Below, in pieces: positions 1,415 through 18,551 of a stretch of 64,000 nt of DNA. This stretch comes from Escherichia coli (GTDB lineage Bacteria; Pseudomonadota; Gammaproteobacteria; Enterobacterales; Enterobacteriaceae), in assembly GCF_044324875.1 (NCBI RefSeq), contig NZ_CP172185.1; one strand, given 5' to 3'. The position numbers were made by a program, and so were the translations under genes. Numbering within the stretch: the stretch's first letter is position 1; each line of letters opens with the position of its first letter. A model generated the notes under the pieces. That model saw only the letters and a list, made by a program, of their open reading frames with translations, did no database searches and had not been told where the DNA came from.

Positions 1415-3322
1415 TTATCGTGGAAAACGAAAAGGGGAATACCCCACATCGTGCGTGATTTTCATCAGGGGATCGGCTTTGCCCGGTACATCAATTATCT
1501 TCATACCTGGCGGAGCATTCTCGAACGTGACTTTCAGTTCGCTGTGCTGTGTCATGGAAGAAGATGGATTCAACAGCGGAACATTGGGTTTGTACTGGCT
1601 CAGGCTGGCCTGATACTGCTCGTACTCTTTACGATCAAAAAAAGGCGTCCAGTCTGAAGCCAGAAACAGCCCTTTATTATCCAGCCAGTTAACCGTATCT
1701 TCAGGAACAACACTTTCCAGAGTATCTTTAACCGGCTCATACATCAGGGTTCCCAGAAAACCATATCCCCCGGCCTTCCCGATAAAGCCGCGGCCTTTCC
1801 CCATCAATCCCGTTTCTGCCGATACCTTCCCCAGCGTACGCATCTCTCTGGTCACTGCGGTAATGGATTTGGTAACGTCAGCAACCCATTTGGTTGCCAT
1901 AAACAGGGCAATCGCTTTCAGAACAGTTTCCCATCCCCCCATCGCCTGCGCCGTTTCATCCACCACGTGCCAGACTTTTTTTATGACAGGGCCTACGGTT
2001 TCCCAGTTATCAATAATGAGGTAAGCGCCACCAACCAGAAGAGCAATCAGCCCCTTAGCTGGCGTCATATTCATCACACCGCCGAGAACTTTCATAATTC
2101 TGGACAAAGAGCCTGCAGCGGCTCCCACCGTCAGTAAGGCCAGACCGATTTTAGCAATGGTCTTAACGAGCTCCGGGTTTTCACGGACAAACGTTCTCAC
2201 TTCCTCAAGGAGCGGTTTTACCGCTTCAAGACCATCATTAACCTCAGGAAGAAACGTTTCCCCCAGCGTGGAAGAAATGGCATCAAGTTGATTTTGCAGA
2301 AGTAAAAGCTGGTTTTCCGTCGTCGCTGCCCTCGAAGCATATTCCTTCTGCATCGAACTGCCATACTGCTGGGAATCCGCAACCCGCCTGAAGTTGGTAC
2401 GCAACAAATCAAGGTTAGTCAGCAGAGGTGCTATCGCGCCCAGAGACTCTTTCCCGAACAGGGCATTCAGCACAGCGGCCCGTTTTTCTTTAGGCACTTT
2501 AGCCATCGCATCCAGTACAGACAGCATGGTGCCCCGGGCATCTTTCTGCATATCAGCAGCTAATTTCTTCGGATTGATCCGCAGAAAACGCAATGCCTGT
2601 TTCTGCGATTTTGTCGCAGAATTTCCCGCGGTCAGGGAAAGCATGAAGTTCTTGATCCCTGTGGCGGCAATTTCTGACTCCACGCCCATCCCGGCAATGG
2701 TTGCCCCCATTGCCGCAATTTCGCCGGAAGCCACACCTGCAACACCACCTAAAGGACCAATACGCGTAACAATATCGGAGATTTTCTTCGCATTCGCCGG
2801 GCCGGTATTACCAAGGTAGTTGATTTTGTCAGCCAGCCCGGCCACTTCATCCTGCGTCATATTAAACGCAGTACGCCACTGGGCCATCATCTGCCCGGAC
2901 TCTTCAGCCGTTGTATCAAAGGCCACGCCCATCTTCACCGCATCAGTGGCAAACTGCATCAGTTCATCACGTGCAATCCCGGCCTGACCGCCAGCCGCCA
3001 CAATTTCCGCGATCCCGTCTGCAGACATGGGAAGCTCTGTAGACAAAGCGCGTACCTGCTCCGTCATGGCCTTAAATGCATCCGGCGTATCCAGACCGTC
3101 CACCACTTTGCGGACATCAGCCATCTTCGATTCAAGGGTGATGGCTGATTTTACAGGGAGTGCCAGTGCCCCCATTATTGCAGTACCCGCCCCGGCAGCA
3201 CCCAGAGCAAGGCTGGAGACTTCTTTCTGAAATCCCTTAAGCTGACGCTGCATACCTTTAAGCGGGCCGGATAGCCTGTCAACGGCGGTGATGATGGCTT
3301 TCAGCTGAAAATTATCAGCCAT
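1415..3322 (-). CDS. Tail tape measure protein
   Basis: 635-aa ORF, Ala/Gly-rich with hydrophobic central segments, positioned between tail chaperone and Mu N-like gene. Confidence 0.7.
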   Translation of the reverse strand: MADNFQLKAIITAVDRLSGPLKGMQRQLKGFQKEVSSLALGAAGAGTAIMGALALPVKSAITLESKMADVRKVVDGLDTPDAFKAMTEQVRALSTELPMSADGIAEIVAAGGQAGIARDELMQFATDAVKMGVAFDTTAEESGQMMAQWRTAFNMTQDEVAGLADKINYLGNTGPANAKKISDIVTRIGPLGGVAGVASGEIAAMGATIAGMGVESEIAATGIKNFMLSLTAGNSATKSQKQALRFLRINPKKLAADMQKDARGTMLSVLDAMAKVPKEKRAAVLNALFGKESLGAIAPLLTNLDLLRTNFRRVADSQQYGSSMQKEYASRAATTENQLLLLQNQLDAISSTLGETFLPEVNDGLEAVKPLLEEVRTFVRENPELVKTIAKIGLALLTVGAAAGSLSRIMKVLGGVMNMTPAKGLIALLVGGAYLIIDNWETVGPVIKKVWHVVDETAQAMGGWETVLKAIALFMATKWVADVTKSITAVTREMRTLGKVSAETGLMGKGRGFIGKAGGYGFLGTLMYEPVKDTLESVVPEDTVNWLDNKGLFLASDWTPFFDRKEYEQYQASLSQYKPNVPLLNPSSSMTQHSELKVTFENAPPGMKIIDVPGKADPLMKITHDVGYSPFRFPR

Positions 3323-3406
3323 GCTTCATCTCCTCATTTATACGGACGGCCTCTGCCTCCAGATCAGCAAAGTGGGAAATAGCCGTCCGGCGAAGTTCAA
3401 GTGGGT

Positions 3407-3730
3407 TTAATTTCCAGAACCACGCGACATTGTAGAATCGCTTCCTGAGGTCTCTTCCGTCTCCAAGCCGGTAAAAAAACGCATTACAATCATGCCTGCC
3501 TTGAAAATATCCAGCTTCGTCATCTGCGCTGCAGACGAGCGCGGGATCCCGGCCAGAAGCGGGATATATTTCAGCGCCACCTGACTGTCCATTTTCATAC
3601 CACCATCAGGCGAAACAGAGAAAGGGAACCCCAGCGCCTCAATCTCGTCATACGTAGGCTCACGTATTTCCAACACATGCAGTGTTTCTTTGTGGGCGAT
3701 GATCGGTTTTTTAAGTACAAGCTCAATCAC
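3407..3730 (-). CDS. Putative tail assembly chaperone
   Basis: 107-aa ORF between tail tube and tape measure genes; position-based. Confidence 0.35.
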   Translation of the reverse strand: MIELVLKKPIIAHKETLHVLEIREPTYDEIEALGFPFSVSPDGGMKMDSQVALKYIPLLAGIPRSSAAQMTKLDIFKAGMIVMRFFTGLETEETSGSDSTMSRGSGN

Positions 3731-7761: not shown

Positions 7762-8967
7762 TTACGCCGCTGCAATCTTCAGCAGTTTGATGGCCTGCGA
7801 ATCGACCAGCATCCCGCCGGTGCGCTTGGTGGTATAAAAACCGACAAACGGTTTATTGGTGTACGGGTCACGCAGAATGCGGGTGCCGATACGGTCAACG
7901 ATGGTGTAACCCCGTTTGAAGTTACCAAATGCAATGGCTTTCGCATCAGCGGCGATATCCGGCATCTGTTCGTTTTCAGCGATACCGTAACCCGCCAGAG
8001 AGGACGGCTGCCCCAGTTCCAGCCCCGGACGCCACAGATAGTTACCCTCGGTGTCTTTCAGCAGACGGATGGCAAACAGGCTGTTGTTGTTCATCATGAA
8101 CTTCGCGCCAGTGCGGTGTGCCTTACGCAGCGTGTAAATCAGTTTGATAATGGCGTCTGCGGTCACCGCCGTCGCTTCGCCGGATACAATATGCTGAAGT
8201 TTGCCGAACGCCCGGACCTTATCGGTTTCATCAGTGGATTCATACGCCAGGAACCCTTTCGGCTTCTTGGTACCATCGCCGGTGGTAAAGGCAATTTCTT
8301 CCTGTTCGGCAAATTCGGTTGCCAGCTCGCTGTTGATCCATGCTTCCACGTTGAAAAAGGCATCATCCAGCATTTTCTGGGTAGCCTGCGGGTTACCGTA
8401 GATTTCCCCCATGAAAGGTTCAATCAGTCCCAGTTTTGAGGTGGCAGTCTGGGAGCGCGCGTCAGTCTCGCCAACCCATCCGGAAGCCGTGCCGCCCAGA
8501 TTCACCAGTTTTTTGTAGTCGGAACCGCCAACGGTGATCACCGTGGCTTCCTGGCGCATCACCACTTCATCTTTCAGCAGGGTAAGAATGTTGCGATCCA
8601 GTGCTTCCGGCACGGCATAGCCGCCGTCTTCATCGGTGCCCACCTGTAATGCCTTGCGCTCCAGATCGCGCAGACCATCTTCACGGCCTTTACGCAGGAA
8701 GCCCACAAACGCTTCTTTATGCTCGGTGGCCAGTTTATTTTGCGCACCACCTGCCGGACGTTTCAGCTCAAGAAGCTCTTTTTCAAGATCGCTTTTGAGG
8801 TTTTCCAGCTCGCTGAGTTTCCCGTTCAGGGTTTCCACCTGCCCGGCAAGTTTGCCTTTTTCCTGCTCAATCGCATCCACGCGCTTGTCGTTCTTTGCTT
8901 TGAAGTCGTCAAACTTCTGCTGCAGCTCCTGCGCGACCTGTTCGACATCTTTAATATCAACCGCCAT
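7762..8967 (-). CDS. Major capsid protein, HK97 family
   Basis: 401-aa ORF with coiled-coil N-terminal delta domain then HK97-fold region; follows prohead protease. Confidence 0.85.
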   Translation of the reverse strand: MAVDIKDVEQVAQELQQKFDDFKAKNDKRVDAIEQEKGKLAGQVETLNGKLSELENLKSDLEKELLELKRPAGGAQNKLATEHKEAFVGFLRKGREDGLRDLERKALQVGTDEDGGYAVPEALDRNILTLLKDEVVMRQEATVITVGGSDYKKLVNLGGTASGWVGETDARSQTATSKLGLIEPFMGEIYGNPQATQKMLDDAFFNVEAWINSELATEFAEQEEIAFTTGDGTKKPKGFLAYESTDETDKVRAFGKLQHIVSGEATAVTADAIIKLIYTLRKAHRTGAKFMMNNNSLFAIRLLKDTEGNYLWRPGLELGQPSSLAGYGIAENEQMPDIAADAKAIAFGNFKRGYTIVDRIGTRILRDPYTNKPFVGFYTTKRTGGMLVDSQAIKLLKIAAA

Positions 8968-8981
8968 CGTATTTCTCCTGA

Positions 8982-9668
8982 TTAGAAGTTCAGATTTTTC
9001 AGTGCATTCAGTGCAGAGCCCACATCCTCAGCGTCGCGCAGGGACAGTGCGCCATAGCCCCCGGCCATGAATGCTTTGGCCTGGGTACGGGAGAGTCCGA
9101 CATCACGCAGGACTCTTTCGATTTTTTTCTGTTCGGGGATTTCCCCGCGGGCCAGTGCGTTCTTGACGTCGCTGATCCGCGCCTCGTCGTTAGACGGGAA
9201 CGTCACCAGGCTGACTTCCCAGAGGTCGATTTCTTTCAGCAGAAAGGCTTCTTTGCTCCGGTCGTATTCCCAGTCTTTCAGGACATACCCAATAGAAAGG
9301 CCGGTTAACGAACCGGCCTTCATGTGTGCATGTGCGCGTTTTGCGAGGGGATCATCATCAATAAGCAACCGTCCCCTGACGTAAAGCCCGACATCGTCTT
9401 CCTTCATTTCGGTGTAAACACCGATGGGTTCATCCATGCGGTGCTGCCAGAGCAGCGCAGGTAACGCTTTTCTGTCACTCCACGCCCGCAGGGAAGCAGC
9501 AAATGCCCCGGACATCACCACATCATCGTGGCTGTCCTTTACACCAAAGACGGAGCCATACCCTTCAAACTCACCGGAGTCACTGACAGATTTCAGACTC
9601 AGCGGTACATCAAGACGTTGTTTCGTCTGCATTGGCGTTATCCTTCTGCTTACCGGCTTTACTGCCAT
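8982..9668 (-). CDS. Prohead protease, HK97 family (true start may be an internal Met)
   Basis: 228-aa ORF between portal and capsid; 5' end overlaps portal gene. Confidence 0.8.
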   Translation of the reverse strand: MAVKPVSRRITPMQTKQRLDVPLSLKSVSDSGEFEGYGSVFGVKDSHDDVVMSGAFAASLRAWSDRKALPALLWQHRMDEPIGVYTEMKEDDVGLYVRGRLLIDDDPLAKRAHAHMKAGSLTGLSIGYVLKDWEYDRSKEAFLLKEIDLWEVSLVTFPSNDEARISDVKNALARGEIPEQKKIERVLRDVGLSRTQAKAFMAGGYGALSLRDAEDVGSALNALKNLNF

Positions 9669-10851
9669 CGGAGGGTTTCGTGGTCATGTTCATCGGTGTG
9701 AGATAGACATCCCCACCGGGACGCGGATTCATATCTTCCAGGTCGCGGCAGTCATTGGGAGAGTAAATTCCCCAGTTGATCCCGGTGGCGTAGGCTTCAA
9801 AACGGGACTTCATATCCCCGCGCAGTAACGCCCCGGCGTTAAATTTGGCGTAATAAACGCCCTGCTTACTTTTTCGTACCAGTCCGGTGTTGATCCGCTG
9901 TTCGATGCGGGTCAGATACGGCACCAGTGAATAGTTGATAAATCCCAGCCCCAGCTCTTCGATATTGTTGAAGGTGGCGCGATCGGTGTTCTGCACCATG
10001 TGCAACGGCACCCGGAACAGACGACAGATTTCTTCAAGCTGAAACTTGCGGGTTTCCAGGAACTGGCTGTCCTCGGCGTTCAGCGCCATCGACTTCCAGT
10101 CCAGCCCCATCTCAAGGATCATCGGGCGGTGAGCATTGCCAAGCCCGGTGTGACGCTCCTCAAAATCTTTCTTCAGGCGCTCATAAGCCTGATCTGACAG
10201 CGTCTGCTCTGTACGCAACACCCCCGACGTCACCGCGCCATTGCTGAACAGTCTGGCCCCGTGCTCTTCGGTCGCTGCCGCCAGCGATATTGCCTCGCGG
10301 GCATAGGCGACGGGATTCAGCCCCACCAGTCCGTCCAGCGTCAGCGTGCGCACATGCCAGATATCCTCCTGGCTCAGTACATCCGTGGAGCCATCCGGGA
10401 ATGTGACCTGATAGACCGGCTCCCAGCTACTGTTAAGCTTCGGTACCACACAACCGGGATCGACGGGCAGCAGTTCAGCCACTTCGCCAAATGCTTTCAC
10501 TTTGTAGGCGTAAAAATTTCCCCTCAGACACAGACAGGTGACCACCAGCTCCCAGAACTCCTGCGGCGTCATATAGCTATTGGGATGCGTGGAGATCAGT
10601 TTATGCAGACGTTCGCCGGTGGCTCTCTGCTTCAGGCTGCCGTTCAGGTGATACAGATTGCAGGGCAACATCCCGACCGACTCTGCCAGCACTCTGACGC
10701 AGGAAAAAACCGCCGTCAGTCGCATGGCTCGCTGACTGCTGATCTGCTTTCCGGTATAGGTGTCGTAGGACAACCCGATGGCATCCGCCAGCTCTGCTGG
10801 CGTGGTCACCGGTGCGTCACTTTTTCGTTGAAATAATCCCGAAAAGAACAC
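9610..10851 (-). CDS. Portal protein
   Basis: 413-aa ORF downstream of large terminase, HK97-type portal features. Confidence 0.8.
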   Translation of the reverse strand: MFFSGLFQRKSDAPVTTPAELADAIGLSYDTYTGKQISSQRAMRLTAVFSCVRVLAESVGMLPCNLYHLNGSLKQRATGERLHKLISTHPNSYMTPQEFWELVVTCLCLRGNFYAYKVKAFGEVAELLPVDPGCVVPKLNSSWEPVYQVTFPDGSTDVLSQEDIWHVRTLTLDGLVGLNPVAYAREAISLAAATEEHGARLFSNGAVTSGVLRTEQTLSDQAYERLKKDFEERHTGLGNAHRPMILEMGLDWKSMALNAEDSQFLETRKFQLEEICRLFRVPLHMVQNTDRATFNNIEELGLGFINYSLVPYLTRIEQRINTGLVRKSKQGVYYAKFNAGALLRGDMKSRFEAYATGINWGIYSPNDCRDLEDMNPRPGGDVYLTPMNMTTKPSDGSKAGKQKDNANADETTS

Positions 10852-11033
10852 TATTTACCTCCACCAACAGACAGCTGTGTACGGTCGAGATATCGCGCCA
10901 CCAGCCACGACCAGAACAGGCACAACGCCCCGGCAACAACAAACCCCGCCGGGGGATAAATCAGCCAGGCACCATACGCCAGCAAAAGCGCCCCCAGCAC
11001 GCCCACCAGAGGCGCGAGAATCAGCATGATCAT
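10851..11033 (-). CDS. Small two-helix membrane protein
   Basis: 60-aa ORF with two hydrophobic segments between large terminase and portal. Confidence 0.35.
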
Positions 11034-11044
11034 AATTACCTCAG

Positions 11045-12778
11045 TTAAAGCGAGCGGATCCCATAGGACTCAATGTGGTCAGACAGCGTGTCTTCTTTCT
11101 CGTACAGCATGGCTCTGCCAACCGCCATAATCAGCGCAACTGCACCATCGATTTTGTTTTCCGCCTGCTCTTTGACGGGCTTCACCACATCATCGTTACC
11201 CGGAATGGTTTTGCCGACCACGTTGCCGATACACCAGGTCATGATGGGATTGCCATCATGATGAAAGCGCCCCGATTCAATTGCCGCTTCCAGCTCTTTC
11301 ATCGGGTCGGACATGTTGGTGTAGTTCTGAATGATAGTGATGGGGTTCAGGTCTTCATCAGCAAGGTCATGTGAGAGCCCGGTCGCCCCGAAGGGGTCGA
11401 TGGGTGACTCGCTGACCGGGCTGATTTTGTTCGCCGCTTTGGCCTCTTCGAGGATGTAGCGATAATCCACCTCCGCACCATCGGTAACGGTCAGAACGCC
11501 CATTTCCACCCATTTCTGAAAGCGTTCGGCTGTCCGGCGATCTTCATTTTTCTCGACGCTGTACACCGTGTCATACGGTACCCAGAAACGCGGGGCTACA
11601 CTGTAGTAATGCGTTTTACCGTCAATCTCGCGGGTATAAAGTCGCGCCATGCTGTTCATATCCAGTTTACGCGCCAGGTCAAAGGCCAGAATGCACGGCT
11701 GCCCCTCGAACTGCTCAAGGGACAGTGATTTATCCTCGCAGCTCTGCCAGCTCACCAGGTTGAAATACGCCGAACGCGCCGACACCCAGATATTGAGGTG
11801 TTTTGTTTTAAAGACGTTTGCCAGACGGGCGTTATTTTTCGCACGCTGCTGCTGACTTAACAAAAATTCGCGATAAACCGACACGCCAATATTTGGATTG
11901 GCTTTTTCCAGCACCTGCGGGTCGGTCCAGTCGTCACCTTCATCAACGGTATAGATGATCCCGAACAGTTCATCGTTAGGCACCGAGCCGTTGAGCATCT
12001 CGATGACTTCCCGCCGTTTGTCGTAGCACGGCCCCTCAATGTTGTACCCGGCGGCAGTGATAGCCCACATCAGTGGCTGACGTCGCGCCCCCATCCCGGT
12101 AAGCATCGTGGTGTAAAGCGCATCTGTGGCGTGCTCGTGATATTCATCCACCACCGCACAGTGGGGTGATGAACCATCACCGGGGTTACCGATCAGCGGT
12201 TCAAAACGCGCACCATCCTCCGGACGGTTCATGTTTGAGGCGTTAACCTCAATCCCGAACGCTTCCGTCAGCATGGGTGTGCGTTTACACATCAGTCTTG
12301 CCGGGCGAAAGACTTCCCATGCCTGTTTCTCTGTCGTGGCACCGGAATACACTTCCGCGCCGAACTCGTTATCACAGGCAAAACAATACAGGGCGACACC
12401 GGCAGAGATTGCCGATTTGCCGTTCTTACGGGGGATTTCGGTATACACCTCACGGAAGCGGCGCAGCCGGGAGCCTTTATTGACCCAGCCAAACGCGCAG
12501 CAGATCACAAAGAGCTGCCACGGCTCCAGCGTGATGGGCATCCTCTTAAATGCCCACTCACCCTTGGTGTGCGGCAACAGCTGAATAAATTTGGCGGCCC
12601 GTTCAGCCAGGTCCTTGTCGAAGCGGTAACGAAACGACTTACTTTTTTCCGCCATCAGGTCATCAAGATGGCGCTGGCAGGCCTGAATCACAAACTGGCA
12701 GGCCACAATCTTTCCGCGCACGACATCACGGGCATACTGATTGGCAGCATTTACGTTGGGGTAAGATTTCCGGCTCAT
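11045..12778 (-). CDS. Terminase large subunit
   Basis: 577-aa ORF with ATPase and nuclease regions, overlapping small terminase by 4 nt. Confidence 0.85.
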
Positions 12779-13278
12779 GATTCGATGATTTTCAGAAACG
12801 GGTTAGTGGTTTTCTTCTGCCCCGCCAGGCCAATCAGACGCTGACGGCTGCTGGGGTCGAGTCCGAGCATTGCCCCCGTGCTGCTCATCTCGGACTCCTG
12901 TTCTTTTTTGGCGGTCAGCTCCGGATTTTTGACCATGCCGCCCATTGCACCGGTGATGGTGTTGCCCTGTCTGGCAATATTTTTCACGGCACGTCGCCAG
13001 AACTCGTAGGCCACGCACCACCGCTCAAGCACCGCGAGGTCAGTCACGCACAGCAGGCCCTGACCGCAGAGTTCTTTAGTTGTCAGTTGCCACATGATCG
13101 TAGCGAGAGGGAGATCTTCTTCAGCGAACCACTCCGGTGGCTCAACACCTTTGATGGGCGTAAAAACAGGTTCATCTTTATTCAGGGCTCGCTTGCCGGG
13201 GTTTCCGGCCAGCGCCTTGCGCGCCGTTGGCTTGGGGCGACGCCCGGAACGCCCCGCCGTTCCAGCCATATGCGGCAC
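12775..13278 (-). CDS. Terminase small subunit (P27 family-like)
   Basis: 167-aa ORF immediately upstream of large terminase. Confidence 0.65.
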
Positions 13279-13394: not shown

Positions 13395-13745
13395 TCACTT
13401 AAGCCGTTCACGGGCCGTCTTCGCCTTATGGCACGGCCAGCACAGACTCTGCATATTACTGTCGGCATCAGTGCCACCATGTGCTTTAGGGATGATGTGG
13501 TCAACGGTTTTCGCTTCACGCGCCACACCAGCACGCAGACATAACTGACACAGGCCTTTGTCACGTTGCAGCACACGCACACGGATAACATCCCACTTAG
13601 AACCATAACCGCGCTGATGACGGGATTGTCCAGGTTTGTATTGCTTCCAGCCTTCGCTTTTGTGGCTTTCGCAGTAGCCTGAAGGGTCCGTGGTTGTAGA
13701 GCGGCAGCCGCGAACACGGCAGGCTTTTGGGGTTCGTGGGGGCAT
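13395..13745 (-). CDS. HNH endonuclease (packaging-associated)
   Basis: 116-aa ORF, Cys-rich zinc-finger pattern and HNH catalytic core (DHIIPKAHGGTD...CHPCH-like). Confidence 0.85.
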   Translation of the reverse strand: MPPRTPKACRVRGCRSTTTDPSGYCESHKSEGWKQYKPGQSRHQRGYGSKWDVIRVRVLQRDKGLCQLCLRAGVAREAKTVDHIIPKAHGGTDADSNMQSLCWPCHKAKTARERLK

Positions 13746-13876: not shown

Positions 13877-14332
13877 TCATTTTAAATCTATATATAACAT
13901 TTTCCCTGCAAGCAAGGCCAATTCTGATTTAAAACCCTTTCCGGCCAAGAAAGCCATTTGAAGTTCTCGTAAATTATCCATGGTTTTAGAAATATCATCA
14001 TTTGAGTTAGATGATAGATAAATATTGCACCTAGATTGCAATTCATTAAAGGCTCTGATAATCAACTTTCTATTAACATAACCTTCATCATTTTCTAAAT
14101 TCTTTGGCATAGAAATCAAAGTATTATTATACTCAATGATAGCATCCATCAATTTCAATTTTTTGTCTTCATTATACTGTTTTTTCCATTGCCCTAATGC
14201 GAGAAAACCCACAATCCCTGCGAACAAAGTAACTCCAATACTCGCCAGACTCACAAGAGCAGAAAATTTAGCCCAAAATGCAGCATCTCTGTTAGCTACA
14301 AGAGTTTCATAAGCAATATAAGTAGCGTCCAT
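13877..14332 (-). CDS. Hypothetical single-pass membrane protein (AT-rich cargo)
   Basis: 151-aa ORF with one hydrophobic helix, very AT-rich, in bor-equivalent moron position. Confidence 0.45.
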   Translation of the reverse strand: MDATYIAYETLVANRDAAFWAKFSALVSLASIGVTLFAGIVGFLALGQWKKQYNEDKKLKLMDAIIEYNNTLISMPKNLENDEGYVNRKLIIRAFNELQSRCNIYLSSNSNDDISKTMDNLRELQMAFLAGKGFKSELALLAGKMLYIDLK

Positions 14333-14448
14333 TTACACCTCACTTTATTTTAGAGGTGATTATAGCAAATTACATTCAATCAGGGCTGTACAGTTTTTTA
14401 TCAATTATACTTCGCCATCTCGCTATTATATAACAATATCTTTACATA

Positions 14449-15078
14449 TTGATGGCGTGCCAGCACAATACTGTCACGTACAACCATTCGGATTACTCAG
14501 AGAAAAGTATGATTCAGGATTTACTGATCGAAGCAATTAGTCACGATAGGATGCATAAAAAGTTAAATGAACTGAATTGCTACTTCTACAATCGCAAACA
14601 TGAAACACAAATACGTGATGAGTTAGTTGTTATAATCAATCAAATCAGCACACTAACTGCTTTAAGTGAGCATCCAAAACTCGGTATCGGCGCTGTTGAC
14701 ATATCACTTTATAACCAGTCGATATTGACGCCTGAACATAATGGCAATGTTGCAACCATCGAGATAAAACATCATTACCCAAAAGATTTGCTTTATCGGC
14801 AGGTTCAAGAAGATATCACTTCCGATATTTCAAGAGTAATAGTTTCACCAACTACACACTTTATCCATATAATCCAGCAAAGAACCAGAATTAAAACTCC
14901 TTCTTTTGGTCAAGTGAAATTCCTTGAACGTGATGCAAGTGATATCAGCACTTATGTGCAATATCTTGAGGAGCTAAGTTCATTTCCCAGTAATTTTCAT
15001 AAAAAAAGTGTATGTATTGAGGTAATTGGTGAAATTATGTCGACATATACCTTTAACGTATATTCATTTGACAACTGA
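14449..15078 (+). CDS. Hypothetical protein (AT-rich cargo, opposite to late genes)
   Basis: 209-aa ORF, AT-rich, divergent from 13877-14332; true start may be internal Met near 14509. Confidence 0.45.
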   Translation: MMACQHNTVTYNHSDYSEKSMIQDLLIEAISHDRMHKKLNELNCYFYNRKHETQIRDELVVIINQISTLTALSEHPKLGIGAVDISLYNQSILTPEHNGNVATIEIKHHYPKDLLYRQVQEDITSDISRVIVSPTTHFIHIIQQRTRIKTPSFGQVKFLERDASDISTYVQYLEELSSFPSNFHKKSVCIEVIGEIMSTYTFNVYSFDN

Positions 15079-15099: not shown

Positions 15100-15357
15100 T
15101 TAATGGTTAGTTCTCTCTGAATCTATTTTACGAATGTCAGCTTTATCTCGATTGCAGTTAGCCAGCGCAGACAACAGACTCACATTCAACTCCAGACTAG
15201 CACCATACGTCAGCGGATTAGGTATAAACGGTACAGGAGTATCAGAAGTCAGGCTGGCTGGCAGTGGTGCCACCGGAGCGCTCACGTAAACCGTCCGCGA
15301 ATTTCCGCAACCGGTCAGCAGCGGCAGCAGGCACATGACGTGAAGCACAATCATCAT
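15100..15357 (-). CDS. Rz1: Rz1-type outer-membrane lipoprotein spanin (o-spanin)
   Basis: Lipobox LLTGC and proline-rich tail in alternative frame overlapping 3' end of Rz. Confidence 0.6.
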   Translation of the reverse strand: MMIVLHVMCLLPLLTGCGNSRTVYVSAPVAPLPASLTSDTPVPFIPNPLTYGASLELNVSLLSALANCNRDKADIRKIDSERTNH

Positions 15358-15634
15358 CCGTAACAGCCACTTTGATATCTTCCTGGGTTCTCTGTGACTC
15401 CAGTGCGATCTGCTGTTTTGCATGCTGGTTAGCCTCCAGAACTGTATTGACGATTTGTAGTGATTGCAGGACGTTATTGGTAATGGCAGTTGCTGATTCA
15501 GCATTTCGTACAGCCTCATCAGCACGTTTCTTTTCGTACTGATATTTGCTGTAGTAGTGGTTGGCTGACCAGATGAAAGAACCAATGACAGTAACGAAGA
15601 AAGCAGCGATAACCAGCTTATAGCTCAACTTCAT
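15242..15634 (-). CDS. Rz: Rz-type inner-membrane spanin (i-spanin)
   Basis: 130-aa ORF with N-terminal TM helix and coiled coil, directly after endolysin. Confidence 0.7.
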   Translation of the reverse strand: MKLSYKLVIAAFFVTVIGSFIWSANHYYSKYQYEKKRADEAVRNAESATAITNNVLQSLQIVNTVLEANQHAKQQIALESQRTQEDIKVAVTDDDCASRHVPAAAADRLRKFADGLRERSGGTTASQPDF

Positions 15635-16094
15635 TTACCACCCCACCAGCCTCTTTAAACCGGGCAATCAGGTCACCGATTTTATGTTCATACTGACCGT
15701 AACCAGCACCCGGCAGTGAAGCCCAGATATTGCTGCAACGGTCGATTGCCTGACGGATATCACCGCGATCAATCATCGGTAAAGCGCCACGCTCTTTAAT
15801 CTGCTGCAGAGCTACAGCGTCCTGGCTTTCTGGAGAAAAATCTTTCAGGCCAAGCTGTTTACGGTAAGCATCCCACCAGCGTGAAAGAAGCTGGTAACGT
15901 CCGGCGGCTGTTGATTTGAGTTTGGGGTTTAGCGTGACAAGTTTGCGAGGGTGATCGGAGTAATCAGTGAACAGTTCACCACCAACAATAACATCATAAC
16001 CGTGGTTACGTGTCGGTTGTCGCCCGTTATCCGTTCCTTCTGACCATGCCACCATATCGAGGAAAGCTTTACGCTGGGAATTTAGTACCTGCAT
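15618..16094 (-). CDS. R: Endolysin, lambda R-type lytic transglycosylase
   Basis: 158-aa ORF near-identical over most of its length to recalled lambda R (NQRKAFLDM...AWSEGTDNGRQ...). Confidence 0.9.
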   Translation of the reverse strand: MQVLNSQRKAFLDMVAWSEGTDNGRQPTRNHGYDVIVGGELFTDYSDHPRKLVTLNPKLKSTAAGRYQLLSRWWDAYRKQLGLKDFSPESQDAVALQQIKERGALPMIDRGDIRQAIDRCSNIWASLPGAGYGQYEHKIGDLIARFKEAGGVVNEVEL

Positions 16095-16097
16095 AAA

Positions 16098-16424
16098 TTA
16101 CTCCTTAGAGCCACCAAACTTATTACCGATTACTCTCATTGCAGCCCCACGAATAGCATCGACACCGATCAGCCCCACCCCACCACCAATGGCAACAGAA
16201 AGCGATTTAGGCCATCCGACATACTCAAGAGCGGATGCAAAAGTCAGCGTCAGAGCGCCACAGAGTAGAATTTCGAGTGTTTTTCGCTTCCAGCCACCAC
16301 CACCGCCAAAATAGGCAATGCGCAAGCCAGCCATAACGATCGACATAATCACTGCGCCCAGTGGTGTGTCTCCACGCCACCAGCTCTGGACCAACTCCAG
16401 CCAGGTATTTGGGTTATGAGGCAT
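16098..16424 (-). CDS. S: Holin, lambda S-like class I
   Basis: 108-aa ORF with three hydrophobic segments and charged C-terminus, immediately upstream of R. Confidence 0.75.
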   Translation of the reverse strand: MPHNPNTWLELVQSWWRGDTPLGAVIMSIVMAGLRIAYFGGGGGWKRKTLEILLCGALTLTFASALEYVGWPKSLSVAIGGGVGLIGVDAIRGAAMRVIGNKFGGSKE

Positions 16425-16755: not shown

Positions 16756-17277
16756 ATGATGAACAAATTAGCACGCTTATTATTAACAGCCAGCTCAATT
16801 GCACCTGTTTGCGCAACTCTATTTTTTATTGGATATGTAAAAGATACGGTTTGGCTGATGCAATATAGCTTATGCGTTGGCATAGCAAGTTGGTTATTAG
16901 CAATAGGCCTGATTCAATATGCTGAGAAACAACTTGAACCTCTGACAAAAAATATTAGTTCAGTTTCTCCCGCTAACAAAGAAGTAACTAATTATTTCTT
17001 AAGCTATTTATTCCCTCTCCTAGGAACAGATTCTATTGCTGAAAATAAAGCATATGCGTTATTCTTTTATTTATCATTGTTATTTTACATCAGCTTTTCC
17101 GAGAACTATAACTTTAACCCAGTATTGTCACTTATCGGTTATAAATTTTACGAAGCTGAAGATGACACCGGCGTAGGTTTTGTATTGATTTCTAAATCAG
17201 TTATTACTGATATTAAAGATATCAAATTTACAGTTATTCAATTAACAGACTACACATTTCTACATGTTAAAGGATAA
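16756..17277 (+). CDS. Multi-pass membrane protein, first gene of AT-rich cargo cassette
   Basis: 173-aa ORF with 3-4 hydrophobic helices, AAGGA ribosome-binding site, opposite strand to flanking late genes. Confidence 0.6.
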   Translation: MMNKLARLLLTASSIAPVCATLFFIGYVKDTVWLMQYSLCVGIASWLLAIGLIQYAEKQLEPLTKNISSVSPANKEVTNYFLSYLFPLLGTDSIAENKAYALFFYLSLLFYISFSENYNFNPVLSLIGYKFYEAEDDTGVGFVLISKSVITDIKDIKFTVIQLTDYTFLHVKG

Positions 17278-17282
17278 TAACC

Positions 17283-18167
17283 ATGGCACTTTTTGCAGTA
17301 ATAGATAATACAATTGCAACGAGAATTGTTAGAGTCGAACTTGATGCAACAGCAAGTACTTCTGTTACGGCCATTTTCCAACAACAGCGTCAATATTTTG
17401 AAAGTCATCATAACAATATGATACCATTCTATGCCGGTTATACACCAAAACATAGTGAGTGTTTTGAAATACAAAACTTTACTGATTCTGCACGCCTGAT
17501 TGACGCAGTCAATAGGCCTACCGCCGTGCCTATCTGGGATCCTAGCCAAATTGATATTGGTTATATTAAAGCATTATTTGTTGGTGTTGACGCGCCAGCA
17601 AACCCCAATATTATTGCACTACAAACTTTCAACAAAAAACAAATCTTAGATACCTCAAAATCATTCTTTGGAAAGCTTTTTGCAAGCAAAACTACCTTTA
17701 GTAAAGCTAATAGCATCGGTTTTAATGTTGATGATAAACTAGTTGCAATAATTATCAATGATACAATACGATTTAAGAGTTTCTTTAATCTAAGAAGCAT
17801 TTTTGACATGTCGTCCTATTTTTCTGCTGCTACTGACCAAGAACTTAATGCATTTAGTCAACTTAGTGTATTTTCTACTCCCCAAGGTTTTGATCTAAAA
17901 TCCGTTGCAGATACAGTGATAAGAAATAAAGTAACACTAATAAATCAGACTGGGATGCTAACACCCCAAAATATGTCAAAGTTTAAATCCGAAGCTGCTA
18001 AAGTTAATTTCCCCTTACAAACCATAATAGTTGGCGGTGTTGAGAAAATTGTCATGCCTTCATCAAAAAAAGAAATAAAAGCCCTTCTTGACTTTCTTGA
18101 GGAAGACATTTGGGTTTCTGGAATAAGTGGAAGACGCTTTAAATCGAATTCAAAGCGCCCAATATAA
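17283..18167 (+). CDS. Hypothetical soluble protein, second gene of cargo cassette
   Basis: 294-aa ORF starting 5 nt after the preceding stop with its own AAAGGA ribosome-binding site; AT-rich. Confidence 0.6.
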   Translation: MALFAVIDNTIATRIVRVELDATASTSVTAIFQQQRQYFESHHNNMIPFYAGYTPKHSECFEIQNFTDSARLIDAVNRPTAVPIWDPSQIDIGYIKALFVGVDAPANPNIIALQTFNKKQILDTSKSFFGKLFASKTTFSKANSIGFNVDDKLVAIIINDTIRFKSFFNLRSIFDMSSYFSAATDQELNAFSQLSVFSTPQGFDLKSVADTVIRNKVTLINQTGMLTPQNMSKFKSEAAKVNFPLQTIIVGGVEKIVMPSSKKEIKALLDFLEEDIWVSGISGRRFKSNSKRPI

Positions 18168-18188: not shown

Positions 18189-18551
18189 TTAACAGGCAAG
18201 AGTGCAAACAATGCCTTCAATGAAACCAAGCGATGTTTGCAACTCTTTCCTGATAGTCCCATCCGAACACTTTCTCTTCTTAGCAATGGCTCGCAATGAA
18301 ATCCCTACCACAAAATGGGCTATAACTAACTCATACTCTTCTGGTTTGTACTTTCTTAATCTAGCTACGCACCCATCGATCATGAGCCCCTCATCATCAT
18401 CACACTGAATCCGGGACTTTTTGCCATGAGGTAAAAGCCCCTTGAAGCCAGCGGCTACCGGTTGCCAGTCCACTCCGCTATTGTCTGAAGCAGCCCAAGC
18501 TCCCCAACGATCCATCACTTCATACATATCACGCATCAACTTTCTCCACAA
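18189..18551 (-). CDS. Late-gene antiterminator Q (DLP12 QuuD-like); start probably at Met 18533
   Basis: ORF shares the WGAWAA...AAGFKGL...CSDG pattern of the small Q family as recalled. Confidence 0.75.
   Translation of the reverse strand: MWRKLMRDMYEVMDRWGAWAASDNSGVDWQPVAAGFKGLLPHGKKSRIQCDDDEGLMIDGCVARLRKYKPEEYELVIAHFVVGISLRAIAKKRKCSDGTIRKELQTSLGFIEGIVCTLAC

Follow-up and report, generated by a model that had tools for sequence, protein, structure and literature searches.

Genes at the terminase-portal junction

The analyzed window is a 64,000-nucleotide stretch of the Escherichia coli contig NZ_CP172185.1 that holds a prophage, and the features considered here are collected in Table 1. 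A sequence-only reading of the window had drawn attention to a 60-residue open reading frame with two hydrophobic helices between the genes for the large terminase subunit and the portal. The ORF list, the Pfam matches and the hydropathy confirm such a frame at exactly the position given in that reading; it runs from the ATG at 11033 to the TAG at 10853..10851. Its strand, for which the earlier reading gave none, is minus. The terminase stop TAA occupies 11047..11045, and the minus-strand spacer reads ...TAA CTGAGGTAATT ATG, which leaves gaps of 11 nt to the terminase and -1 nt to the portal.

Table 1. Features of the ymfR locus and of the lysis cassette in the same prophage
Feature	Position	Strand	Description
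ymfR-like gene	10851..11033	minus	60 codons and TAG stop; predicted two-helix inner-membrane hairpin
Large terminase subunit	11045..12778	minus	577 aa; directly upstream of ymfR; Pfam PF03354 and PF20441
Portal	9610..10851	minus	413 aa, GTG start; directly downstream of ymfR; Pfam PF04860, E 4e-108
ymfR Shine-Dalgarno GAGGT	11038..11042	minus	Within the 11-nt terminase-ymfR spacer; read from sequence
Portal Shine-Dalgarno GGAGG	10858..10862	minus	Inside the Gly58 and Gly59 codons of ymfR; 6 nt before the portal GTG
TAGTG overlap	10849..10853	minus	ymfR stop and portal GTG sharing one base; translational-coupling geometry; read from sequence
Terminator-like hairpin inside ymfR	10988..11015	minus	12 pairs, then TTTTGCTGG; putative rho-independent terminator in the SfII annotation
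Helix 1 (predicted), residues 2-25	10959..11030	minus	Conserved P8, G11, G14, G21, W23; AlphaFold2, hydropathy, invariant alignment columns
Tight turn YPPAG, residues 26-30	10944..10958	minus	Family conservation highest here (core motif); predicted periplasmic face; alignments, family sequences
Helix 2, membrane part (predicted), residues 31-46	10896..10943	minus	Conserved G35, C38, L39, W41, S42; alignment, hydropathy, AlphaFold2
C-terminal tail (predicted cytoplasmic), residues 47-60	10854..10895	minus	Basic after the helix, variable middle, GGGK end; alignment, K/R counts
Holin-like ORF	16098..16424		108 aa; lysis cassette of the prophage
Endolysin	15618..16094		Lysis cassette of the prophage
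Rz/Rz1	15100..15634		Lysis cassette of the prophage

Translation of ymfR from the late polycistronic mRNA through its own ribosome-binding site, with a start 11 nt past the terminase stop, is strongly supported by the arrangement of these signals. The last codons of ymfR also serve as the ribosome-binding site of the portal gene, whose start overlaps the ymfR stop, and this geometry lends strong support to a predicted coupling of portal translation to that of ymfR. Annotations of SfII, phiP27 and the Klebsiella phage ST101-KPC2phi6.3 likewise show an overlap of 1 nt with the portal, and it was also seen in PY54 and in two distant loci (L006 and L009). The C-terminal residue pairs GG, EG or GE, whose coding is Shine-Dalgarno-like, occur in 146 of the 253 family members (58%), compared with 5 of 253 (2%) in a control window.

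The terminator-like hairpin within the gene was considered as an internal terminator and rejected. It is broken in phiP27 and absent from the Klebsiella phage, PY54 and the distant homologs, and its T-tract comprises only four residues. We judge it to be an incidental by-product of Gly, Ala and Leu codons.

Identity of the gene and its family

By its sequence, the 60-codon gene is ymfR, an already annotated and uncharacterized gene rather than a new one. Its product shares 59 of 60 residues with YmfR of E. coli K-12 (b1150; IPR020297), which is encoded in the cryptic prophage e14, the single substitution being S54 in K-12 and L54 here. The K-12 gene has the same length and occupies the same slot between the terminase (aaaE) and the portal (beeE); these flanking genes are remnants in e14, whereas both are intact in the prophage studied here. 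The product also matches PHROG 502 (E = 1.5e-27, residues 1-55 of 60), and sequence similarity, the predicted hairpin and the slot agree in assigning it to the YmfR family (IPR020297/PHROG 502). Family members elsewhere include Sb3 of ST64B, L37 of phiP27 and SfII_03, and the label "membrane protein" is attached to PHROG 502 as well as to the gene in SfI, SfII, ST64B and phiP27. Unannotated members were found in SfV, SfIV and PY54. The gene is present in approximately 29% of complete E. coli genomes and carries the ymfR name across genomes of this species.

The label "head-tail joining protein W", found in the records ON470603, ON470584, ON470580 and PQ793804, is probably a mis-annotation. The lambda W sequence scores -0.8 bits against the family profile. 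The likeness to lambda is one of position only, lambda also having a gene of approximately 60-70 codons that separates the large terminase gene (A) from the portal gene (B). In contrast to gpW, a soluble protein of head completion, YmfR is almost wholly hydrophobic (GRAVY 1.29) and is predicted to form a membrane hairpin. Searches of Pfam, NCBIfam, PADLOC and PDB sequences with YmfR returned only sub-threshold matches to unrelated membrane proteins.

Selection on the reading frame

A set of 30 distinct natural alleles from near-identical E. coli prophages was used to follow selection on the gene. Third codon positions hold 18 of the 28 variable sites, and there are 24 synonymous versus 9 non-synonymous changes, with 28% expected to be synonymous (binomial p = 1.2e-7). 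An antisense ORF on the plus strand (10812..11048, 78 aa) is open as well, but it shows 8 synonymous versus 25 non-synonymous changes and was rejected as a gene. Homologs of YmfR form 166 clusters in Enterobacterales and their relatives, and a profile search yields 377 representative clusters with a common core motif, which is retained from Enterobacterales to GC-rich metagenomic lineages. Thus conservation in related prophages, proposed by the sequence-only reading as a check, is borne out, and it includes the slot itself. The other option raised there, a spurious ORF arisen by chance in a GC-rich spacer, could appeal to the short length and to the missing annotation in some records (SfIV, PY54 and SfV), but it is refuted by purifying selection confined to the ymfR frame and by deep conservation of both the shared motif and the operon slot, which together with the good ribosome-binding site before the gene make it extremely improbable.

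Predicted membrane topology

Kyte-Doolittle means over 15 residues peak at 2.7 and 2.2 in YmfR, and the AlphaFold2 model (mean pLDDT 83) contains two helices, at residues 2-25 and 29-56. In the alignment of close homologs, residues W23, I25, Y26, P27 and G30 are invariant and the W-x-x-Y-P-P-x-G turn is present. Among the 253 family members, the turn is almost uncharged (22 K/R in total), the N-terminal extensions carry 159 K/R versus 30 D/E, and the start of the C-terminal tail is basic. Because of this distribution of basic residues, together with the hydropathy and the AlphaFold2 model, YmfR is predicted to be a helical hairpin of the inner membrane with both ends in the cytoplasm (N-in/C-in). 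Natural proteins with two hairpins in tandem exist in the family (P0146, P0152, P0169 and P0217), which hints that YmfR may self-associate or oligomerize. A fold search with the hairpin model against viral structures returned only uncharacterized small proteins, none of them at E <= 0.001, a helical hairpin being too simple a shape for such a search to be informative.

Association with the portal in mosaic prophages

Two classes of partial match were observed in complete E. coli genomes, namely the portal with ymfR in the absence of this terminase, and this terminase in the absence of both ymfR and the portal. The third class, ymfR with the terminase but without the portal, was never seen among these genomes. 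In E. coli mosaics, ymfR goes with the portal and not with the terminase. The end of the terminase gene is swapped together with ymfR and the portal, the exchanged part comprising the last 6 codons in phi467-type mosaics and approximately 26 codons in SfV-type mosaics. SfV combines a terminase that is 92-95% identical with a different portal and a very divergent, unannotated 53-aa hairpin. The co-inheritance of ymfR and the portal was seen at no more than two or three recombination junctions that are independent of one another, and adjacency alone could explain it.

A built-in member of the head module

The sequence-only reading had suggested that the gene could be a moron, with a holin-like role or one in superinfection exclusion. 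Morons have their own promoter and terminator, a deviant base composition, and an on/off distribution between close relatives, whereas ymfR has none of these. The 11-nt gap upstream and the 1-nt overlap downstream leave no room for a promoter or terminator of its own, and a scan of the minus strand found no promoter-like site for ymfR in the roughly 500 nt upstream. The GC3 value of ymfR (0.67) matches those of the terminase (0.65) and the portal (0.68). Presence or absence of ymfR alone was not observed as a class among the E. coli genomes and phages, where the gene is exchanged only along with the portal. Real insertions in the same prophage stand out in comparison, namely Kiwa and the ORFs at 13877..15078.

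The slot itself is conserved. The gaps are no longer than 11 nt on both sides of the gene at every locus examined, and the five distant members whose context could be read (L006, L009, L012, L013 and L014) all lie in the order terminase-X-portal; the slot between the terminase and a PF04860 portal is also found in SfII, phiP27, PY54 and the Klebsiella phage. In K-12 treated with an SOS-inducing drug, the ymfR mRNA rises approximately 2^4.5-fold along with those of the other e14 genes (PMC10012262). In view of the tight spacing, matching composition and conserved slot, the moron proposal is not supported, and ymfR is best seen as an integral part of the late operon for head assembly and packaging in HK97-like phages of the P27/ST64B/SfII type.

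Other hairpin proteins in the same slot

The slot between terminase and portal had been called an odd place for a membrane protein. It proves less odd than it seemed: in head modules of this kind, such genes recur there. Two-helix hairpins unrelated to YmfR occupy the slot in Pseudomonas phage 5399 (54 aa) and Streptococcus phage Sfi21 (59 aa, DUF1056), and hairpins with weak profile similarity occupy it in Vibrio phage K308 (67 aa) and Mycobacterium phage Phoebus (62 aa).

A close parallel is DUF1056 (PF06341), represented by orf59c of the Streptococcus thermophilus phage Sfi21, which likewise has two hydrophobic helices and lies in the identical slot of an HK97-like head module. Some sources label it by position as a "putative head-tail joining protein", as happened to YmfR. 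Its host, however, is Gram-positive, and it has no detectable sequence relationship to YmfR: the DUF1056 Pfam model has no match at E <= 1 to YmfR or to 65 family members, while Sfi21 orf59c matches it at 7e-10. Homology of the two families was rejected, with an hhalign probability of 0.2%, and on present evidence DUF1056 would be an analog of YmfR and not a homolog. In the literature searched, neither ymfR nor DUF1056 nor PHROG 502 is the subject of a functional study; the small-protein surveys searched do not discuss the terminase-portal slot, and a review of the SPP1 genome likewise holds nothing relevant.

No gene in the slot was found in HK97, nor in 10 of 15 sampled phages with a portal of the PF04860 family. 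Therefore any role of ymfR would be an accessory one.

Possible functions of YmfR

We tentatively suggest, with a probability of roughly one in three, that YmfR is made late, coupled to the portal, and assists head assembly as a membrane accessory, a hairpin whose YPPAG turn lies at the periplasmic face. By inserting co-translationally, the hairpin would cause the portal to be made at the membrane surface or would hold the portal protein there. The hairpin, probably an oligomer packed via the conserved glycines, would there act as a dispensable accessory that helps the portal ring to form and the procapsid to be initiated, and it would not be needed by every HK97-like phage. The logic would be like that of gp40 and the membrane-bound portal initiator gp20 of phage T4. 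The favored functional model for YmfR is thus gp40, a portal-linked phage factor that works at the inner membrane when heads begin to assemble (PMC9958956); the T4 portal initiator, itself membrane-bound, needs this viral chaperone and contacts YidC (PMC9958956). The two are likened by function and not by sequence, and T4, for its part, has a separate scaffolding core. The gene for gp40 is not known to lie next to the T4 portal gene. HK97 proheads are known to assemble without membrane factors, and we know of no report of a membrane step in the head assembly of HK97-like phages.

Some features of YmfR itself speak against a role at the portal. Conservation is concentrated in the membrane-embedded residues and the turn on the periplasmic side; the tail in the cytoplasm, the part able to touch the portal, is short and variable. 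Further, the same architecture fits holin-like or exclusion proteins.

Consistent with the latter, YmfR could be a late membrane-active lysis accessory (holin-like, pinholin-like, an antiholin or a depolarizer), although we regard this as unlikely. Oligomers of the glycine-rich hairpin would make small lesions or modulate the main holin, and would thereby tune the timing of lysis to head assembly; encoded in the low-expression stretch between terminase and portal, the protein would be made in small amounts only. In its size, two transmembrane helices, predicted N-in/C-in topology, glycine-rich helices and charged C-terminal tail, YmfR resembles class II holins and pinholins such as S21 of phage 21. 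The small residues G11, G14, G21, G30 and G35 are conserved, and the tandem-hairpin variants are suggestive of self-association. T7, in which the lysis genes 17.5 and 18.5/18.7 lie around the packaging genes 18 and 19, provides a precedent for the interleaving of such functions. An ASKA clone of K-12 ymfR released D-alanine in the first round of a halo screen and dropped out in later rounds (PMC10299036); the authors of the screen credit such release partly to leakage or lysis upon overexpression of membrane proteins (PMC10299036).

Several facts weigh against lysis. The prophage holds a complete canonical cassette elsewhere, at 15100..16424, approximately 4 kb upstream of ymfR in the operon, and holin genes are also present in distant loci that have the hairpin. 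Class II holins sit in the lysis cassette, whereas ymfR lies outside it. Neither Pfam nor PHROGs has a holin family that matches YmfR, and a control with S21 scores below zero against the YmfR profile. The dual-start motif, two methionines with a basic residue between them, was not found: the allele studied here starts with MIM and its homologs with MIL, MFL or MLL, there is no charged residue between Met1 and Met3, and the pair is not conserved. Finally, a function in lysis would leave the strict placement and the coupling to the portal across phyla unexplained.

It is less probable still that YmfR protects the host by superinfection exclusion, blocking incoming phage DNA at the inner membrane in the manner of HK97 gp15 or T4 Imm. 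As a small, predicted inner-membrane protein of a prophage it would be suited to this, and both its abundance among complete E. coli genomes and its integrity in the decayed e14, where the terminase and portal genes on either side have been reduced to pseudogenes or fragments, would accord with such a benefit, though survival of a 183-bp gene in e14 may be due to chance. There is also a precedent in HK97 gp15, a moron for superinfection exclusion that, like ymfR, encodes a membrane protein among the morphogenesis genes of an HK97-like prophage; this embedding was reportedly described by Cumby et al. in 2012. However, the hallmarks of a moron (own promoter and terminator, shifted composition, and solo presence or absence) are lacking in ymfR, and its mRNA is induced with lytic genes, rather than being known from lysogens (PMC10012262). 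The identical slot is occupied in virulent-looking as well as temperate phages of three phyla. Nor does YmfR match any PADLOC-DB family at E <= 0.01, in a database that omits most exclusion proteins.

Finally, ymfR might act in cis as a translational device, in which any short hydrophobic ORF would, through coupling, set the expression ratio of terminase to portal and might, by inserting co-translationally, pull the late transcript to the membrane, the peptide itself having no specific partner. Throughout the family, the start/stop arrangement is conserved, as is the portal ribosome-binding site inside the gene, and unrelated families with one architecture in one slot are what would be expected if general properties alone counted. 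We consider this improbable: the conservation of the YmfR sequence is far above the needs of a spacer, and many related phages lack any intervening ORF, the terminase being coupled directly to the portal.

Implications

The portal-coupled accessory role proposed here for YmfR may be extended, as a speculation that we think rather doubtful, to the other hairpins. The terminase-portal junction might have recruited unrelated hairpins (the YmfR/PHROG 502, DUF1056 and Pseudomonas 5399 types) time and again; there, coupled in translation to the portal, they would tether portal synthesis or ring nucleation to the membrane. Whether their hosts are Gram-negative, Gram-positive or actinobacterial, scaffold-less HK97-like phages would then share an unnoticed, T4-like, membrane-initiated mode of head assembly.

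The gene ymfR is a "y-gene" of K-12 and of well-known Shigella, Salmonella and Stx phages, lacking an assigned function. What the comparison adds is its context, as a fixed, portal-coupled part of the head module and not cargo, with unrelated hairpins in the same slot of distant phages. The annotation can be corrected as well: the W label looks wrong, and SfV, SfIV and PY54 hold members that should be added. If YmfR is instead a lysis or exclusion factor, it is still a very widespread one. If YmfR does help to start head assembly at the membrane, this would bear on how HK97-like phages specify a single portal vertex without a separate scaffold.

Identity and Annotation of ymfR

The minus strand of the window carries the late operon of a P27/ST64B/SfII-type HK97-like phage. 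A two-helix ORF was confirmed between the large terminase and portal genes, at the coordinates that the sequence-only reading had given. The product is identical to YmfR of E. coli K-12 (b1150, cryptic prophage e14) at 59 of 60 positions, and in e14 the gene is flanked by aaaE, a terminase remnant, and beeE, a portal fragment. ymfR is an already-annotated gene, so no new element is discovered here. RefSeq calls the K-12 protein "IPR020297 domain-containing protein YmfR", the NCBI pipeline uses the name ymfR in every listed match that includes the gene, and a 1.3-kb query around it has matches in 1598 of 5426 complete E. coli genomes. The features considered are listed in the table.

Coordinates of ymfR, its neighbors, and related loci
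Feature	Sequence	Position	Strand	Remark
Major capsid protein	window	7762..8967	-	after prohead protease
S78-type prohead protease	window	8982..9668	-	after portal
Portal	window	9610..10851	-	directly downstream of ymfR
ymfR	window	10851..11033	-	60 codons
Open antisense frame	window	10812..11048		78 aa
ymfR-internal hairpin	window	10988..11015	-	segment fold -21.6 kcal/mol, then TTTT
Large terminase	window	11045..12778	-	directly upstream of ymfR
Terminase tail	window	11048..11123	-	last ~26 codons
Mosaic breakpoints	window	11063 and about 11123
P27-family small terminase	window	12775..13278	-	after HNH endonuclease
HNH endonuclease	window	13395..13745	-	first in listed late-operon order
151-aa ORF	window	within 13877..15078	-	phrog_6169
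209-aa ORF	window	within 13877..15078	+	phrog_12494, E 1e-123
Lysis cassette	window	15100..16424		complete, with own holin-like ORF
Kiwa pair	window	16756..18167	+
KwaA	window	16756..17277	+	E 1.9e-83
KwaB	window	17283..18167	+	E 2.3e-150
Q-like antiterminator	window	18189..18551	-
53-aa two-helix ORF	SfV (L003, NC_003444)	3262..3423	-	unannotated
65-aa family member	PY54 (L004, NC_005069)	2295..2492	+	unannotated
Family member or relative	SfIV (NC_022749)	about 2382..2483		unannotated
Tandem hairpin	locus L010	1500..1808
Tandem hairpin	locus L015	64..399
Two overlapping ORFs	L099 (Acutalibacteraceae phage NatCom_991)	190..821		101 and 109 aa

The gene is labeled "membrane protein" or "putative integral membrane protein" in SfI, SfII, ST64B (Sb3), phiP27 (L37), and 118970_sal3, and its PHROG match, 502, has the description "membrane protein" and, by default, the category "moron, auxiliary metabolic gene and host takeover". 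Searches of Pfam, NCBIfam, PADLOC, and PDB found no relative of YmfR. Homologs in four automatically annotated records (ON470603.1, ON470584.1, ON470580.1, PQ793804.1) are labeled "head-tail joining protein W". The label appears to have been given because the position is like that of lambda W, and it is probably an annotation mistake inherited through position or a pipeline: lambda gpW and the hydrophobic hairpin show no similarity, and such an identity is ill-suited to a protein with a GRAVY of 1.29. The 1764-bp record OR844959.1 ("Enterococcus phage Efm 3-10"), attributed to Enterococcus faecium, has 95% DNA identity to the terminase-ymfR-portal region of E. coli and Salmonella prophages, and its attribution probably reflects contamination or mislabeling.

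No functional study of ymfR was found in the searchable literature. A siderophore-ampicillin conjugate that induces SOS raised ymfR mRNA (log2 4.5) along with that of the other e14 genes (PMC10012262), and the status of ymfR as a late-operon gene induced along with the operon is strongly supported. The ASKA ymfR clone was among 65 of 392 membrane-protein clones releasing D-alanine in a first-round halo assay; it was unconfirmed in later rounds, and the authors ascribe such halos partly to leakage or lysis (PMC10299036).

Selection and Conservation

In 30 distinct natural alleles, collected from phage records and IMG/VR prophages, third codon positions hold 18 of the 28 variable sites. The ymfR frame shows 24 synonymous versus 9 non-synonymous changes (28% synonymous expected; p = 1.2e-7). 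The open antisense frame, with 8 synonymous and 25 non-synonymous changes, was rejected. Homologs with 58-97% identity occur in Escherichia, Shigella, Salmonella, Citrobacter, Klebsiella, Enterobacter, Yersinia, Hafnia, and Buttiauxella, and the residues P8, G11, G14, G21, W23, I25, Y26, P27, G30, G35, C38, L39, W41, and S42 are invariant in their alignment. A family profile search of 1.84 billion proteins yielded 377 representative clusters (50% identity level, E <= 0.001), nearly all of 45-95 aa and with a common core motif. A broader profile collected 1042 clusters at the 90% level, with named sources extending to Plesiomonas, Salinicola, and Aliamphritea. A check of related prophages found YmfR deeply conserved and its terminase-portal position kept. 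That ymfR is a translated gene under selection is strongly supported; given the synonymous bias and the 377 clusters with a common core, a spurious ORF, one option of the sequence-only reading, has a negligible probability.

ymfR as a Member of the Head Module

The 11-nt spacer that separates the terminase stop TAA from the ymfR ATG, CTGAGGTAATT, includes a Shine-Dalgarno sequence. The 3' end of ymfR reads ...GGT GGA GGT AAA TAG TG, so that the portal gene has its ribosome-binding site, GGAGG, within the last glycine codons of ymfR, and one base is common to the ymfR TAG stop and the portal GTG start. This arrangement is, on strong support, suited to coupling with the portal. Among 253 family members, 146 have GG, EG, or GE within their last five residues, whereas a control window has them in 5 of 253; the overlapping ribosome-binding site is the best explanation for the conserved C-terminal GG. 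Within the coding sequence lies a terminator-like hairpin, annotated in SfII as a rho-independent terminator and conserved in the closest relatives only.

Because of the short spacer and the shared base, ymfR has no room for signals of its own. No promoter-like site was found within ~500 nt upstream on its strand, and its GC3 (0.67) resembles that of the terminase (0.65) and portal (0.68). All five distant members with readable context (profile-search proteins P0160, P0201, P0129, P0170, P0265) are encoded directly beside or between a TerL-type terminase and/or a PF04860 portal, with gaps or overlaps of at most a few bases; one of these loci has a protease of another type, S49. Unannotated members or relatives also fill the terminase-portal gap in PY54 and SfIV. 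SfV has a terminase 92-95% identical to that of the window, a different portal, and between them a 53-aa ORF whose entire length aligns with the family profile (28 bits) but which is devoid of the W..YPP motif. The annotated SfV portal start (GTG, locus 3320) overlaps this ORF by 59 nt and is therefore probably too far upstream. Thus the position, earlier considered odd for a membrane protein, is a conserved feature of the module; the results place ymfR within the head module and do not support the moron option of the sequence-only reading.

Unlike ymfR, two other loci of the same prophage are genuine insertions. The Kiwa defense pair is moron-type cargo on the opposite strand, between the antiterminator and the holin/endolysin/Rz cassette. 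Two low-GC ORFs between the Rz and HNH genes, with no PADLOC match, form a variable insertion, since the alignment with the E. coli prophage closest to this one (strain GN25) ends at about 13746.

Among complete E. coli genomes, partial matches of the phi467 type contain the portal, ymfR, and the last 6 terminase codons without the window terminase, while those of the SfV type contain the window terminase, except for its last ~26 codons, but neither ymfR nor the portal. In the spread sample, ymfR never accompanied the terminase where the portal was missing, and it was never the only gene lost. One IMG/VR locus has the same bias (terminase 86%, portal 97%). These patterns indicate co-inheritance of ymfR with the portal; as only two or three independent junctions are involved, they suggest rather than establish that ymfR belongs to the portal. 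In mosaic prophages, exchanges that bring in ymfR and the portal also replace the terminase tail, as would fit a role of this tail as the portal-binding part of the terminase.

The Terminase-Portal Junction in Other Phages

Streptococcus thermophilus phage Sfi21 encodes between its large terminase and portal a two-helix hydrophobic protein like YmfR, orf59c (59 aa, Pfam DUF1056); the profile-profile probability of 0.2% gives no evidence of homology. Phages were also picked evenly down the ranking of 2103 records matching the window portal, giving 15 interpretable junctions. Three hold a small two-helix ORF: Vibrio phage K308 (67 aa; a weak 15 bits against the YmfR profile), Mycobacterium phage Phoebus (gp11, 62 aa, annotated "membrane protein"; a weak 19 bits), and Pseudomonas phage 5399 (54 aa; no score). 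Ten are empty, one contains two soluble ORFs, and another contains a homing endonuclease. In HK97 the terminase and portal overlap directly, with no gene between.

Hairpins of ~60 aa thus recur at this junction in phages of Gram-negative, Gram-positive, and actinobacterial hosts, apparently with more than one origin. All ORFs of 50-70 codons encountered there are two-helix hairpins, which is hard to ascribe to chance. As the empty junctions and HK97 show, HK97-like assembly as such can proceed without the hairpin. The junction can accept cargo as well, since that of L099 holds two soluble ORFs, which look arranged like a toxin-antitoxin pair.

Predicted Structure and Topology

Hydropathy indicates a helical hairpin, and an AlphaFold2 model built with 65 diverse family members has helices at 2-25 and 29-56 (mean pLDDT 83). 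Among 253 family members, N-terminal extensions, where present, contain 159 K/R versus 30 D/E, basic residues directly follow helix 2, and the turn is nearly uncharged. Under the positive-inside rule, both termini are therefore predicted to be cytoplasmic and the YPPAG turn periplasmic. The most strongly conserved residues are the glycines in each helix and those of the aromatic/proline turn, a pattern that points to close packing of the helices and to a specific contact inside the membrane or on its outer face. Two tandem hairpins are present in four of the representative proteins (P0146, P0152, P0169, P0217; 102-122 aa), suggesting that hairpins associate with each other. Downstream of the tandem-hairpin gene in L010 lie a 100-aa ORF and an S78 protease, and the neighbors have no recognizable portal or terminase domains; this locus may be a different kind of element, for example a satellite or gene-transfer-agent-like cluster.

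Possible Function

We tentatively suggest, with a probability of roughly 35%, that YmfR is an accessory of head assembly: the hairpin would recruit the portal ring, or the synthesis of the portal, to the surface of the membrane and so favor initiation of head assembly. The model is the portal initiator of T4, which is membrane-bound, gp40-dependent, and contacts YidC (PMC9958956). Against it, the membrane part and the periplasmic turn hold the conserved residues, rather than the short tail in the cytoplasm, and the gene is absent from many related phages. We also know of no membrane step in HK97-like phages.

The topology would also fit a low-dose lysis-timing or holin-like factor, which we consider unlikely, as the prophage has a complete lysis cassette and YmfR has no holin signature. 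Superinfection exclusion, for which HK97 gp15 is a precedent and the intact ymfR of e14 an argument, is more doubtful still, none of the marks of a moron having been found. A mainly cis-acting device for coupling or mRNA targeting would account for the unrelated analogs at the junction, but leaves the strong motif conservation unexplained and seems the least probable of these roles.

Whatever the role, ymfR encodes a very common and deeply conserved membrane hairpin that is coupled to the portal gene and has analogs in distant phages.
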